Program-made: the position numbers and the translations under genes
Shown here: positions 1 through 4,877 of the stretch, piece after piece
How positions within the stretch are numbered: the first letter of the stretch is position 1
How the letters are laid out: each line of letters opens with the position of its first letter
Virus record (IMG/VR): IMGVR_UViG_2690316278_000003
Strand: one strand, 5' to 3'
Source of the DNA: a virus
Taxonomy: Duplodnaviria > Heunggongvirae > Uroviricota > Caudoviricetes
DNA: 4,877 nucleotides
The notes under the pieces: generated by a model
Database searches by the model: none
What the model was told of the DNA's origin: nothing
The model's input: only the letters and a program-made list of their open reading frames with translations

Positions 1-297
1 ATTGATTTCATCAAACTGCTCATCGTCCATTAGCAACCCCGCATGCGTCAGCGCATCCAGCGGCGCTTTCAGAATATTGTCCAGGTCACGGCGGCGCTTA
101 TCCGGTGGTTCTGCAATAATTTTTATTGCCAACCTTCCGGACAGGCTTAATTTCAGCCGCTGCTGGCGAACAATAAGCGCCACTGCCCGGCGATAACGCT
201 CCCCGGCTTTTGATACAAAATATGTGCTGCCACGACGACGCCAGTAAGTGTTCACCGTCGGCGGGTAAGGTAAAACAAATTCTATGCGCTCGGTCAT
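1..297 (-). CDS. rusA: RusA-family Holliday-junction resolvase, partial (N-terminal 99 codons; C-terminus lies beyond the left window edge)
   Basis: Minus-strand ATG at 297..295 directly after the TAA of the upstream gene (TAAATG). Hand translation gives MTERIEFVLPYPPTVNTYWRRRGSTYF...IIAEPPDKRRRDLDNILKAPLDALTHAGLLMDDEQFDEIN with no stop down to position 1. The PD(K/R)RRRDLDN...DAL...DD block matches the RusA motif recalled from E. coli RusA. Not in the supplied ORF track. Confidence 0.8.
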   Translation of the reverse strand, partial: MTERIEFVLPYPPTVNTYWRRRGSTYFVSKAGERYRRAVALIVRQQRLKLSLSGRLAIKIIAEPPDKRRRDLDNILKAPLDALTHAGLLMDDEQFDEIN

Positions 298-1357: not shown

Positions 1358-1636
1358 TTACCTCCAGATCCGTTGCTGGAATGTGCGGGACGGACGCGTT
1401 GGCCGTTCGGAGTAAGGGAGCCTGACGGAGATTATCCAGTGACGGTAGTCGAGGCTAAGGGCTTTTTTAACCTCGCATCCGCGCCTGCGGTAACACTGAA
1501 TGAGCCATTCGGCCTGTTCTTCAGTGCATGGGGGATGCTGGTACCAATCAGATTTAAATGCGTGAGAGCGCCGCCCGTGCCTGCTGGCAAAGACGGCTGA
1601 ATTATCAGAATTGTGTAGTCTGGAATTTTGCGCCAT
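1358..1636 (-). CDS. hypothetical small protein (92 aa), translationally coupled to the downstream YdfU-like gene
   Basis: ATG at 1636 preceded by GGAGAAAGCCG (SD-like), the same initiation context used by the 200-aa gene in the other module copy. Stop TAA at 1360..1358 abuts the YdfU-like start. Unusually rich in rare AGG/AGA codons, so coding status is uncertain. Confidence 0.45.
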   Translation of the reverse strand: MAQNSRLHNSDNSAVFASRHGRRSHAFKSDWYQHPPCTEEQAEWLIQCYRRRGCEVKKALSLDYRHWIISVRLPYSERPTRPSRTFQQRIWR

Positions 1637-1702
1637 CGGCTTTCTCCGGTGGCACAGTGTTACTCAACAGGGGTTCAGCCCTGCGCTGAATTGTAGATGA
1701 AT

Positions 1703-1963
1703 TCACTCATCTTCAAAAGCAGAAAAACCAGCCTTAATCCCAGCTTCTTTCAGAGACGGCAACGATGTGACAAATTCATTTGCACGCGAAATAAAACCAT
1801 CCGTCACAAGCCCATCCACAAAATGAATTAACGCAGCTCCACTCTTCCTTTGTTGAGACTGTAAACATTTAATACGGCAGTGGCTGACAATAGCGCCATT
1901 CTCAACGCGCACAGTATAGAGGCCATCTTCACTAAAAATTTCACGTAATTCTTCGATTTTCAT
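1703..1963 (-). CDS. Rem-like small phage protein (86 aa), paralog of the ORF at 4295..4582
   Basis: ATG at 1963..1961 with GGAAGGA SD 8 nt upstream; begins MKIEELREIFSEDGLYTVRVENGAIVSHCRIKCLQSQQRKSG. About 85% identical at its N-terminus to the second copy. Placement directly downstream of hok mirrors the hokD-rem arrangement of the K-12 Qin prophage (recalled synteny, not a sequence match). Confidence 0.7.
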   Translation of the reverse strand: MKIEELREIFSEDGLYTVRVENGAIVSHCRIKCLQSQQRKSGAALIHFVDGLVTDGFISRANEFVTSLPSLKEAGIKAGFSAFEDE

Positions 1964-2183: not shown

Positions 2184-2339
2184 TTACTCCTCAGGTTCGT
2201 AAGCTGTGAAGACAGCGACCTCCGTCTGGCCGGTTCGAATTCGTACCTCGCAGAGGTCTTTCCTCGTTACCAGTGCCGTCACTATGACGGTTAAACAGAT
2301 GACGATCAGGGCGATTAACATCGCCTTTTGCTGCTTCAT
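2184..2339 (-). CDS. hok: Hok/Gef-family type I membrane toxin (51 aa)
   Basis: Hand translation from ATG 2339..2337: MKQQKAMLIALIVICLTVIVTALVTRKDLCEVRIRTGQTEVAVFTAYEPEE, matching the Hok/Gef family and closely the HokD/RelF sequence as recalled. Strong SD AAGGAGAAG upstream. The track ORF 2184..2396 is the same frame with a 19-codon in-frame upstream extension (MNGKSRLASYVPKGKEKQA) that lacks an SD. Confidence 0.9.
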   Translation of the reverse strand: MKQQKAMLIALIVICLTVIVTALVTRKDLCEVRIRTGQTEVAVFTAYEPEE

Positions 2340-2404
2340 AGCCTGCTTCTCCTTGCCTTTCGGCACGTAAGAGGCTAACCTAGATTTGCCGTTCATAGAT
2401 TGAG

Positions 2405-2469
<65 letters not shown>

Positions 2470-2471
2470 GC

Positions 2472-2548
2472 TGGCCCACCACCGAGGACTCGAACCTCGC
2501 ACCGTCAACTTAGAAGGTTGATGCTCTATCCGGATGAGCTAGTGGTGG
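2472..2548 (-). tRNA. tRNA-Arg (anticodon UCU)
   Basis: Minus strand CCACCAC-TA-GCTC-ATCCGGATA-GAGC-A-TCAAC-CTTCTAA-GTTGA-CGGTG-CGAGG-TTCGAGT-CCTCG-GTGGTGG-G-CCA. All 7 acceptor pairs, anticodon stem and T-stem form; 77 nt with encoded CCA. Anticodon TCT in a 7-nt loop. Confidence 0.85.
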
Positions 2549-2549
2549 T

Positions 2550-2626
2550 TGGTGGCCCTTGCTGGACTTGAACCAGCGACCTGGCGATTATGAGTCGCTC
2601 GCTCTGACCAACTGAGCTAAAGGGCC
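2550..2626 (-). tRNA. tRNA-Ile2-like (anticodon CAU, ileX/ileZ type; automated tools may call it tRNA-Met)
   Basis: Minus strand GGCCCTT-TA-GCTC-AGTTGGTCA-GAGC-G-AGCGA-CTCATAA-TCGCC-AGGTC-GCTGG-TTCAAGT-CCAGC-AAGGGCC-A-CCA; 77 nt, acceptor fully paired, CCA encoded. Acceptor and T-arm closely resemble E. coli ileX as recalled. Separated from tRNA-Arg by 1 nt. Confidence 0.85.
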
Positions 2627-2635
2627 GGAGGCAGA

Positions 2636-2665
2636 ATAATAACCATATGTCATCACATCTGCAAA
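2636..2665 (-). promoter_or_regulatory. Candidate sigma70 promoter for the tRNA cluster (weak -35, good -10)
   Basis: Minus strand TTTGCA/TTGCAG (2665-2659), 17-18 nt spacer, TATTAT (2641-2636), then GC-rich CTGCCTCC before the tRNA-Ile 5' end at 2626. By-eye hexamer match only. Confidence 0.25.
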
Positions 2666-2712
2666 CTCATCTGACCACCAGCACGTTTAACGTCCTGTGC
2701 CGTTTTTCAGGT

Positions 2713-2738
2713 ATAAAAAAACCCGCATAAAGCGGGCT
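2713..2738 (-). terminator. Rho-independent terminator about 80 nt downstream of the Q-like gene (tR'-like position)
   Basis: Minus strand GAGCCCGC-TTTAT-GCGGG followed by TTTTTTTAT (plus-strand stem 2722-2726/2732-2736, A-run 2713-2721). Confidence 0.55.
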
Positions 2739-2815
2739 CTTTCAAATGTCCATGTCTGCTATTCGCCTCGCGGTACAGCTTTGCGAAGCGTACAAGAATT
2801 GAAGCAGTTTTTACG

Positions 2816-3370
2816 TCAAAAAGCAATAACTTTTTTCTCTATACCAAAAGCCATAACCATTGGTTTGTACAAAATAAATTCTGCCACCTTTAGCCAATGC
2901 TCAATGCGTCTTTCACAGGTTCTTAAACTCCATTTCGGGTGTGCATCATTCAGCAGTTCAGCCATTTTGCGTTTGGTCATCCCCCGCCCCTCATACCGTT
3001 GCCGAAGGACGCTAATCAATCCTGGATGCTCTGCCAGCACCTCACTTATGACCCGATCAATACATAACGCCTCTGCATCAGTACAATGCGCCAGCCAGCT
3101 CTTTTGCTTACCGTTAATCATATCCCGCAAAAAAGCCTCAAGTTCAGACTTGTTCAGACCTGCTTTTTTCATCCTCCGGAGCGCCTCGTTAATTGCCGTT
3201 TTTGTCAGCTTTTTAGAGGTCAACATCAGGTTAAACATATTCCCCGTCTTACCGCCACCAATATACGACCAGCGCCCCCACATACGTAGTTTTCCCTGAA
3301 TCCAGACACTTTCCAGCGTGGTGAGACGAAGGTGTTCTCCGCTTTTTCCTGTATTCGTTGGGTAAATCAT
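2816..3370 (-). CDS. Putative late-gene regulator in the antiterminator-Q position (184 aa); assignment by synteny only
   Basis: ATG at 3370..3368 preceded by AAGGAGG, overlapping the YbcO-like stop (TTATGA). Product begins MIYPTNTGKSGEHLRL. Sits between a ybcO-like gene and the terminator/tRNA cluster, where Q lies in lambdoid and Stx phages. No Q sequence motif recognised. The 40-codon upstream extension in the track is rejected. Confidence 0.55.
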   Translation of the reverse strand: MIYPTNTGKSGEHLRLTTLESVWIQGKLRMWGRWSYIGGGKTGNMFNLMLTSKKLTKTAINEALRRMKKAGLNKSELEAFLRDMINGKQKSWLAHCTDAEALCIDRVISEVLAEHPGLISVLRQRYEGRGMTKRKMAELLNDAHPKWSLRTCERRIEHWLKVAEFILYKPMVMAFGIEKKVIAF

Positions 3371-3657
3371 AAATATCCCTCCTTTCTCCAGATTTCTTGT
3401 GTGCGAAAAACACCTTCTGCATGCATCAGGCGTAATTCTTCTTTGGTGTAATCGCTGGTTTTTACCCGCCCGTCGATTAAATCGTGGCACGAGCTACAGG
3501 CAATCGCTGCCTGCATATCGTGTGGCTTTATCGCTGTTCCGCACGTTCCCGCCAGTCGGTAATGCGCCAGCACAGACGTTTCCGGATCGTGATTGCAGTA
3601 GCCAGGAATTCTGACGGTGCACATCTGCCCCCGCGCCGCTTTACGTAAATCCACCAT
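3367..3657 (-). CDS. ybcO: YbcO-like (DUF1364) phage protein, putative nuclease, 96 aa
   Basis: MVDLRKAARGQMCTVRIPGYCNHDPETSVLAHYRLAGTCGTAIKPHD...IACSSCHDLIDGR matches the recalled DLP12 YbcO pattern (ADLRKAARG..C.VRIPG.CN..PETSVLAH.RL...). ATG at 3657..3655 overlaps the upstream TAA by 1 nt. Confidence 0.85.
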   Translation of the reverse strand: MVDLRKAARGQMCTVRIPGYCNHDPETSVLAHYRLAGTCGTAIKPHDMQAAIACSSCHDLIDGRVKTSDYTKEELRLMHAEGVFRTQEIWRKEGYL

Positions 3658-4256
3658 TACGCAAACTCCAGCAGCTGCGCGGCCACATTTTCGACTTGTT
3701 CCGGAGAGGAAAATTTACGGAACAGAATCCAGTTCCACAGCACATTCAGAACAGATTTATAAACCTGCTGAAACTCGGTTTCGTCCATATTCGCAAACGC
3801 GATAGATTTCGCCCGACACCCACGGCTACCGTCCGGATAAAAATGCTCGGTGTAAAATCCAGCCTGAATGGTTACCCACTCGCGAAAAGCCTCAAACGAC
3901 TTTAGCAATGCCGTATCCCGGGTTCTGCGTGTCGCAACTGTATTCAGATATTGCTCTGCGGCTTCGCTCAGAGCTGGCGTATGTTCCCGGCCTACTGATT
4001 CACACAGGTAATCAACGAAACCGGACACCAGTTTTCGTTCGCGAGGCGTGATCGCCCCACCGACCGGAGTCCAGTAATCGAAACCCAGTTGCAGGAGTTT
4101 GAAAAAACGCTTGTGGAATGCGTAGTTACACACACGCTTAAAGTCTGCGTGTATCCACTCACCTATTTTGATTTGATGCAGAAAATCGCAACTCTCCGGC
4201 GTCGCCGGGAGAAGTAATCCGGAAGAGGTTTGTTTGACCAGTTGTATATGTGCCAT
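3657..4256 (-). CDS. Hypothetical phage nin-region protein (200 aa), possibly DUF1367-family
   Basis: ATG at 4256..4254 preceded by GGAGAAAGCCG; product begins MAHIQLVKQTSSGLLLPATPE. Continuous ORF to TAA at 3659..3657, coupled to ybcO. The track's 14-codon 5' extension has no SD. The DUF1367 suggestion rests on typical prophage gene order and is unverified. Confidence 0.7.
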   Translation of the reverse strand: MAHIQLVKQTSSGLLLPATPESCDFLHQIKIGEWIHADFKRVCNYAFHKRFFKLLQLGFDYWTPVGGAITPRERKLVSGFVDYLCESVGREHTPALSEAAEQYLNTVATRRTRDTALLKSFEAFREWVTIQAGFYTEHFYPDGSRGCRAKSIAFANMDETEFQQVYKSVLNVLWNWILFRKFSSPEQVENVAAQLLEFA

Positions 4257-4294
4257 CGGCTTTCTCCGGTGGCACGGTGTTACACAGCAGGAGT

Positions 4295-4582
4295 TCAATC
4301 CTGCTCAAGATTGTAGATGAGTTTATTCTTCAGCAAAAGCAGAAAACCAGCCTTAAAACCAATCTCTTTCAAAACCCGTAATGATGTGACAAATTCGTCC
4401 TCACGCAAAATAAAACCGTCCGTCAGAAGTCCATTACAAAAATAAAATAACACAGCACCGCTCTTCCTTTGTTGAGATTGCAAACATCTAATGCGGCAAT
4501 GGCTGACAATCGCTCCATTCTCAACGCGCACAGCATAGAGGCCATTTTCACTAAAAATTTCACGCAATTCTTCGATTTTCAT
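4295..4582 (-). CDS. Rem-like small phage protein, second copy (95 aa, divergent extended C-terminus)
   Basis: ATG at 4582..4580 with GGAAGGA SD; MKIEELREIFSENGLYAVRVENGAIVSHCRIRCLQSQQRKSG. Paralog of 1703..1963; the C-terminus differs after KAGF because of a 1-nt difference in a homopolymer. Confidence 0.7.
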   Translation of the reverse strand: MKIEELREIFSENGLYAVRVENGAIVSHCRIRCLQSQQRKSGAVLFYFCNGLLTDGFILREDEFVTSLRVLKEIGFKAGFLLLLKNKLIYNLEQD

Positions 4583-4700
4583 CTTCAGAATCCTTCCAGA
4601 TAAATAGCTCTCCCCTGTTCGGGGTCCATCCCTCTTCTCCCTGCGCGCTACTTAAGTGAGTCGATTCTATCTGCGAAGGTGCGCGAATCAAATTCACCGG

Positions 4701-4754
4701 AAATAAACAACAAAAAACCCGCCGAAACGCTGAGAGATCACAGCGATGGGCGGG
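4701..4754 (-). terminator. Rho-independent terminator downstream of hok copy 2 (extended two-part stem)
   Basis: Plus-strand CCCGCC (4718-4723) pairs with GGCGGG (4749-4754), with an inner CGCTG/CAGCG stem. On the minus strand it is followed by a T-rich tract (plus-strand A-tract 4701-4717). Positional homolog of the 2084-2115 terminator. Confidence 0.5.
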
Positions 4755-4831
4755 TTAAGTGCGGGTGCGTTGAGGATGCCTGACACATCAGAGGTGGGCG
4801 GGGATGGGATCAGCTCCCCGCCCGGTCACTC

Positions 4832-4877
4832 TTACTTCCTGGATTCGTAGTCTACGAAGACAGCGACCTCCGTCTGG
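4832..4877 (-). CDS. hok: Hok-family toxin, second copy, partial (C-terminal 15 codons plus stop; rest beyond the right edge)
   Basis: Minus-strand translation of 4877..4832 gives ...QTEVAVFVDYESRK then TAA, homologous to the C-terminus of hok copy 1 (QTEVAVFTAYEPEE) and other Hok/Gef proteins. Embedded in the duplicated module. Confidence 0.7.
   Translation of the reverse strand, partial: QTEVAVFVDYESRK

Follow-up and report, generated by a model that had tools for sequence, protein, structure and literature searches.

Gene content of the locus

The DNA analysed here (the window) is a stretch of 4877 nucleotides from the caudoviricete record IMGVR_UViG_2690316278_000003. Around the gene of interest, all features lie on the minus strand and, read in the direction of transcription, comprise two genes of a nin-type region, the 184-codon gene itself and a truncated tRNA cluster, beyond which a second gene module runs off the left end of the window:

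3657–4298, minus strand: DUF1367 gene of the nin-type region preceding Q (Pfam PF07105, E 1.2e-95; PHROG 319, carrying a NinB/Orf-like label)
3367–3657, minus strand: ybcO-like gene (Pfam YbcO, E 7.7e-45)
2816–3370, minus strand: DUF1133-family gene, 184 aa, putative late antiterminator of the Q21 superfamily (ORF, Pfam, PHROG, PDB and Foldseek)
2626–2550 and 2548–2472, minus strand: tRNA genes with anticodon CAU (Met, or possibly Ile2) and for Arg-UCU (ARAGORN; Rfam tRNA, 70.5 and 56.4 bits)
2408–2469, minus strand: tRNA-Thr (UGU), the 3′ acceptor end of which is lost at a joint (partial Rfam tRNA match, model positions 8–63)
1–297, minus strand: first 99 codons of rusA, which runs off the left end of the window

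The 184-aa open reading frame occupies exactly positions 2816–3370, and its translation is the same as the sequence quoted in the first-pass annotation, which had also correctly described its surroundings: DUF1367 and YbcO are encoded upstream, and a terminator (2738–2712) and tRNA genes lie downstream. The stop codon of ybcO overlaps the ATG of the DUF1133 gene (ATGA), and a ribosome-binding site (AAGGAGG) is located seven bases 5′ of this ATG, within the 3′ end of ybcO. The frame can alternatively be read as a 224-aa product from a GTG; the 184-aa start is the right one, because the DUF1133 profile aligns from residue 1 and the homologues all begin at the shorter start. Since the protein has 874 database homologues and occurs in identical form in 3743 indexed blocks of the assembly collection, the reading frame did not arise by chance and is a real, intact prophage gene. 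One 175-aa partial copy, identical to the protein along its full length, is named as Shigella sonnei.

A distant homologue of the Q21 antiterminator

The 184-aa protein matches the Pfam family DUF1133 (PF06576) with an E value of 2e-107 and 356.7 bits against a cutoff of 23.1, residues 1–176 aligning with positions 1–176 of the 176-position profile. Its score for Phage_antitermQ (PF06530), the family of Q21 and Q933W, also exceeds the gathering threshold, by a small margin (29.4 bits vs. 26; E 8e-7; residues 69–163 on profile positions 19–113 of 118), and the same precomputed double match is found in most of its homologues. In PHROGs, it falls into family 753, 'anti-termination protein Q-like' (E 9e-80); NCBIfam holds no model for it, and the profiles of the lambda Q (PF03589) and Q82 (PF06323) families yielded no match at E values up to 0.1.

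Searches of the PDB sequences retrieved Q21 with the single sequence (E 4e-4), with a 16-sequence family profile (E 7e-8) and, using hmmsearch, with a profile built from 49 sequences that range from Escherichia to Pantoea, Pectobacterium and Yersinia (E 4.5e-10, 42.4 bits). The only other PDB entries below an E value of 0.1 for the latter profile were two designed helical proteins (E 0.0026 and 0.019), and the rest had E values of at least 0.25; the Q21 chains are the only significant PDB sequence matches of the DUF1133 protein. The match is colinear, with the N-terminal W-x7-WG-W helix falling on Q21 residues 6–31 and the C-terminal half on residues 56–158, at about 19% identity. By these sequence comparisons, the protein is a distant homologue of Q21 and belongs to a DUF1133 branch of the Q21/Q933W family.

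A first structure prediction, from the 16-sequence alignment, was discarded as too poor (pLDDT 53.7) and redone with 49 more diverse sequences. The resulting AlphaFold model has a mean pLDDT of 73.8, reaching 88–95 over residues 101–170. The 12 best Foldseek matches in the PDB are all Q21 chains (probability 1.00; TM-scores of 0.50–0.58 normalized by the query and 0.64–0.73 by the target), whereas the first match to anything other than Q21 has an E value of about 0.9. The predicted model accordingly has the Q21 fold, with low confidence in the region corresponding to the torus. The first-pass annotation, which had proposed a profile search and a structure prediction, had stated that the protein resembles no recognisable Q family. 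This statement does not hold: the full-length DUF1133 match is joined by a PF06530 score over the gathering threshold, Q21 is recovered by profile and provides all of the leading fold matches, and both the PHROGs label and an earlier paper, in which the family was entered as 'Q antiterminator HHPred' (Pinto et al., 2021), point the same way. Its other suggestion, that of a divergent Q type, is borne out by the profile match and by the predicted fold.

Q21 (PDB 6P18, 6P19, 6P1A and 6JNX; PF06530, which also includes the Q of 933W) and the DUF1133 protein share, besides the predicted all-helical fold, the N-terminal W-x7-WG-W helix, a Cys-Thr/Asn-Asp-Asp/x-Glu/Asp-Gly/Ala-L motif and a C-terminal recognition helix with TCRR. 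Their genes occupy the same genomic slot and have a promoter and a terminator downstream. In the structural work on Q21 by Yin et al. [quoted passage not shown] The C-terminal helix-loop-helix of the DUF1133 protein (residues ~133–174), already described as resembling a helix-turn-helix in the first-pass annotation, aligns with this DNA-binding motif.

Two elements set the DUF1133 proteins apart from Q21. The segment between helix 1 and the core, which forms the torus in Q21, is ~30 residues longer (~56 vs. ~25 residues), and its counterpart in the DUF1133 protein (residues ~39–94) has a pLDDT of 47–70 in the monomer model. Conversely, the minor-groove loop is ~12–13 residues shorter in all DUF1133 proteins, even though the flanking helices align; by the alignments, the long loop characteristic of the Q21 HT[loop]H is lacking.

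Intact relatives carry the gene in the Q slot

The first-pass annotation had argued from its position that the gene encodes a late antiterminator, and the relatives agree with this argument. A prophage that looks intact and complete (locus L010; CP065613.1) displays the order hok, rem, DUF1367, YbcO, DUF1133 gene (with an identical protein), four tRNAs, holin, lysozyme, Rz, terminase and portal, and carries no gene of the other Q families. More generally, intact relatives have the DUF1133 gene in the Q slot, immediately ahead of the tRNA, holin, lysozyme and terminase genes, and their stretch from the replication genes to the terminase showed no further Q. Three further phages have the gene in that slot, annotated as Q by the depositors of the records: Klebsiella phage 1 LV-2017, the LT-II toxin phage Rac-SA53, which is complete, and Escherichia phage vB_EcoS-683R6, with 90% identity. 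We considered 41 loci, one genome per species, spanning Escherichia, Citrobacter, Klebsiella, Enterobacter, Serratia, Yersinia and other Enterobacterales, and used a small set of holins and endolysins as queries; homologues were found on the same strand within 4 kb downstream of the gene in 31 of the 41. Identical copies of the DUF1133 gene are also present in IS-riddled prophage remnants of 4.8-Mb genomes.

Conserved promoter motif, pause-like hexamer and terminator

The 3′ end of the gene and the region that follows it contain a compact set of putative transcription signals:

2821–2826, minus strand: predicted −35 element TTGCTT of the late promoter (pR′ analogue), within the last codons of the DUF1133 gene (composite motif)
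2798–2803, minus strand: predicted −10 element TTCAAT, 17 bp past the −35; weak, with T at position 2
2787–2792, minus strand: second −10-like hexamer TACGCT, 5 nt past the −10, candidate sigma-dependent pause element
2712–2791, minus strand: predicted short leader RNA (~80 nt), with a hairpin at its 5′ end ahead of the terminator (RNA fold)
2712–2738, minus strand: intrinsic terminator (tR′ analogue), AGCCCGC-tttat-GCGGGTT followed by TTTTTAT (sequence and RNA fold)
2636–2665, minus strand: sigma-70-like promoter TTTGCA, 18 bp, TATTAT, between the terminator and the first tRNA (consensus match only)

The DUF1133 stop codon falls in the spacer between the −35 and −10 elements. Alignment of the gene ends of 40 distinct loci revealed a family pattern of a −35 TTGnnn, 16–17 nt, a −10-like hexamer, 4–7 nt and a second −10-like hexamer TAnGCT, the second hexamer with its 4–7-nt gap being present in 36 of these 40. 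When the composite pattern (TTGnnn, 16–17 nt, −10-like hexamer, 4–7 nt, TAnG[CA]T) was used for scanning, it was encountered once in the window, at 2826 on the minus strand, and at the gene end in 29 of the 41 loci; elsewhere, only two matches were found in 663 kb of sequence (both strands). Three further loci have the motif 420–835 bp beyond the gene: L020 and L022, where a mobile cassette lies in between (isrK/C4 and sok, respectively), and L053 (420 bp). Since the motif reappears beyond the cassettes, it stays downstream of the DUF1133 gene despite insertions.

In relatives from Serratia, Yersinia and Rouxiella, the first hexamer pair is close to consensus (TTGACT, 16 nt, TAAATT or TATGAT), which supports its assignment as the promoter. 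The possibility that TAnGCT is the true −10 was considered and is less likely: nothing resembling a −35 lies 17 bp upstream of it, and the conserved TTGnnn-17-TTnAAT pair would be left unexplained. If transcription started at A2791, TACGCT would span positions from about −1 to +5; the sigma-dependent pause element of lambda pR′ is located at +1 to +6. Directly after TAnGCT, most loci display a short inverted repeat, GCTyG...CrAGC (window positions 2776–2789, minus strand), which reads GCTTCGCAAAGC in the window and is the perfect palindrome CTTCGCGAAG in Serratia; it may form a hairpin at the 5′ end of the RNA or be bound by a protein. A GAAAnTGC or AAACTGC sequence is conserved in the promoter spacer just 5′ of the −10. 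The promoter contains no convincing adjacent 8-bp direct repeats of the kind that serve as binding subsites of Q21, and no Q-binding element could be defined.

The terminator lies 40–95 nt past the stop codon in most related loci. The leader folds with a free energy of −31.4 kcal/mol (z −4.07), and none of 200 shuffled sequences folds as well; a weak, sub-threshold isrK-like Rfam match (19.9 bits) covers positions 2716–2789. A Q cassette consists of the Q gene, a promoter, a sigma-dependent pause element, a terminator and the late genes (Yin et al., bioRxiv 10.1101/651190), an anatomy that the DUF1133 loci appear to reproduce at the level of sequence, with the late genes being absent from the window.

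The intact tRNA cluster of the L010 prophage comprises four genes (CAU, Arg-UCU, Thr-UGU and Gly-UCC; L010 positions 10745–11055), including a complete copy of tRNA-Thr at 10902–10977. Judging from its position, the consensus-like promoter at 2636–2665 may allow the phage tRNAs to be expressed in the lysogen independently of Q.

The window joins two prophage segments

Positions 2408–4877 of the window are 99.7% identical to the L010 prophage, whereas positions 1–2406 are 100% identical to another group of loci (L056–L059), except for a 250-bp stretch absent there; in L056, the missing 250 bp belong to the rem region (window positions 1626–1875). When read base by base (2400–2415), the joint at 2407 displays one or two bases of microhomology. 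It removes the 3′ end of tRNA-Thr and everything beyond, including tRNA-Gly and the lysis genes, and fuses tRNA-Thr to a point 11 nt ahead of the reading frame of mok/hok. By these matches, the window is chimeric: it combines segments from two prophages, its native late genes have been replaced at 2407 by a second nin-type module, and the DUF1133 gene is therefore cut off from its own late genes.

CP104423.1 contains both source prophages, which share one orientation and are separated by ~120 kb, the left-hand source being the upstream one. This order is unlike that of a simple deletion; a joint produced by tandem duplication or circularisation, or an assembly artefact, would fit. The exact junction at 2407 was not found in the collection of species-representative genomes, and no complete E. 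coli genome matched the whole window without interruption, the best matches covering 77–80% in six pieces at ~90% identity.

The left-hand module consists of hok, rem, a 92-aa ORF, DUF968 and rusA. In the loci matching it with 100% identity, the module leads to a 273-aa Q of the lambda family (PF03589, with a DnaJ-like Cys motif), a methylase and a holin. By extrapolation from these loci, a canonical PF03589 Q probably serves the next late operon, beyond the left end of the window. The first-pass annotation had named a canonical Q located elsewhere and serving this late operon as evidence against its reading. For the window, this objection applies in part: such a gene follows the left-hand module in the matching loci, but the gene itself would lie outside the window.

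Several further observations concern the small genes around the joint. Two rem-like genes, of 87 and 95 aa, are located at 1703–1966 and 4295–4582 on the minus strand, and a hok-like sequence precedes each of them (including one at 4751–4877). With each rem copy following a hok-like sequence, the window holds two alternative nin-type modules in tandem, rem-DUF1367-YbcO-Q and rem-92aa-DUF968-RusA. The mok/hok toxin gene (2184–2396, minus strand) starts 11 nt past the joint and is missing its own upstream leader and promoter; the sok antisense RNA model scores 19.5 bits at 2334–2425 (minus strand) compared with 105–129 bits in intact loci. Transcription may reach the hok gene of the window only when it reads through from the Q/tRNA unit, and a working sok may be lacking.

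Relationship to lambda Q, Q82 and the isrK cassette

According to Yin et al. (bioRxiv 10.1101/651190), no similarity can be detected between the Q families. The lambda Q gene (PF03589) shares with the DUF1133 gene its probable role, its genome position and a promoter that overlaps or abuts the gene, and both cassettes have a −10-like element where the transcript starts or is predicted to start, with a short terminated leader after it. The two proteins, by contrast, do not match in sequence at E values up to 0.1. The DUF1133 protein contains three cysteines (C96, C103 and C152) and, as read from its sequence, no CxxC pair, and therefore has no zinc motif like that of lambda Q, as the first-pass annotation had observed.

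The Q82 family (PF06323), which includes AntQ of Salmonella Gifsy-1, likewise occupies the same slot, and its gene is also followed by a short terminated RNA, but AntQ and the DUF1133 protein are unrelated in sequence (no Pfam match; hhalign probability of 0.9%). AntQ, a toxic antiterminator that has been studied, was suspected to be a DUF1133 protein because the Rfam family isrK directly follows DUF1133 genes in two loci (L013 and L020). This identification was abandoned: the published antQ cloning primer encodes MNTQYLQ, and the corresponding ORF belongs to PF06323. We also rejected isrK as the pR′ leader of the DUF1133 family, given that isrK-C4-antirepressor is a cassette lying between Q and its promoter, with the composite motif reappearing 835 bp downstream in L020. 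In several prophages lacking the isrK cassette, isrJ directly follows AntQ, which points to IsrJ as the short pR′ leader RNA of Q82-type AntQ.

The isrK-C4-antirepressor cassette, which resembles P1 immI, was observed at 4588–4776 in L013, at 4588–4768 and 1290–1476 in L020 and at 3325–3510 in L102. Two unrelated Q families have it inserted right behind their genes: E. coli and Salmonella provide the DUF1133 cases, and Gifsy-1-like prophages those of the Q82-type AntQ. In the DUF1133 loci L013 and L020, the −35 hexamer of the cassette overlaps the Q stop codon.

A proposed mechanism and its alternatives

We consider it likely, with a probability of roughly 0.8, that the 184-aa protein functions as a Q-type antiterminator. 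By analogy with its homologue Q21, RNA polymerase would start near A2791, from the promoter that overlaps the Q gene at its 3′ end (−35 at 2826–2821, −10 at 2803–2798), and would pause when sigma-70 makes renewed contact with the −10-like TACGCT right where the transcript begins. The DUF1133 protein would bind the promoter DNA through its C-terminal helix-loop-helix, load onto the paused polymerase and travel along with it, its N-terminal segment restricting the RNA exit channel such that the terminator hairpin at 2738–2712 could not form. The polymerase would then read through into the tRNA genes and, in the intact prophage, into the holin, lysozyme, Rz and structural genes. Several points speak against an antiterminator: the PF06530 score is marginal, two structural elements are unlike those of Q21, the TTCAAT hexamer is weak, and the native late genes are missing from the window.

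Some of these same points would suit a protein that acts at late genes as a DNA-binding activator, recruiting RNA polymerase to the late promoter in the manner of sigma region 4, and not as an antiterminator. The kinship of the Q21 fold with ECF sigma region 4 and a DNA-binding loop unlike that of Q21 are compatible with such a role, and a −10 as weak as the one in the window is to be expected of an activator-dependent promoter. Activation alone, however, does not explain why, in most loci, a terminator is placed 40–95 nt downstream of the promoter and ahead of the late genes, nor why a second −10-like hexamer is kept at the start of the transcript. The helix that precedes the torus in Q21 is conserved in the DUF1133 proteins, and the near-consensus promoters of distant family members would need no activator. 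We therefore regard an activator as highly improbable.

The chimeric structure of the window raises a different question, namely, whether the gene is here a functionless relic of a rearranged prophage, with the late operon further downstream being controlled by a separate Q of the lambda family. The two halves of the window derive from different prophages, one of them identical to loci in which hok-rem-DUF968-rusA leads to a PF03589 Q, a methylase and a holin; the joint cuts into tRNA-Thr, and identical copies of the gene persist in the IS-riddled remnants. Yet the ORF, ribosome-binding site, promoter motif and terminator are all intact, the same protein is encoded by the apparently complete L010 prophage, and the second Q gene lies beyond the window, known only from the matching loci. 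Moreover, the lack of native late genes carries no information on the function of the protein. A relic is thus a rather improbable explanation, even if the copy in the window may have lost control over a late operon, its native late genes being missing. Antitermination by a Q21-like mechanism remains our preferred reading.

Within that reading, the DUF1133 proteins could form a functionally distinct, fourth class of Q, combining the Q21 core fold with an enlarged exit-channel segment, a shortened DNA-binding loop and loading at a lambda-style pause element at the transcript start. We put this forward tentatively and rate it as unlikely; if true, the loading geometry would be a hybrid not seen in any solved Q complex.

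Implications for phage regulation

The Q label is already attached to the family in databases: some GenBank records name DUF1133 proteins antiterminators or late gene regulators, even though Pfam keeps the family apart and both the NCBI and Pfam names still read 'domain of unknown function'. What is new is the firm homology to the solved Q21, the two structural differences and the conserved cassette. Literature searches, including those for PF06576 and Rac-SA53, returned no experimental report on any DUF1133 protein, and a paper on pR′ of Stx phages does not treat this Q type. The DUF1133 gene is, in all, an ordinary, if under-studied, phage regulator.

The link to Q21 provides annotators with a better name for these proteins, and the promoter, pause-like hexamer and terminator offer experimenters a defined cassette. 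Q proteins set the timing and level of late gene expression in lambdoid prophages, including that of toxin genes located just downstream of Q. The Q slot is taken by DUF1133 proteins in 13 Shiga-toxin phages (listed by Pinto et al., 2021) and in the LT-II phage Rac-SA53.
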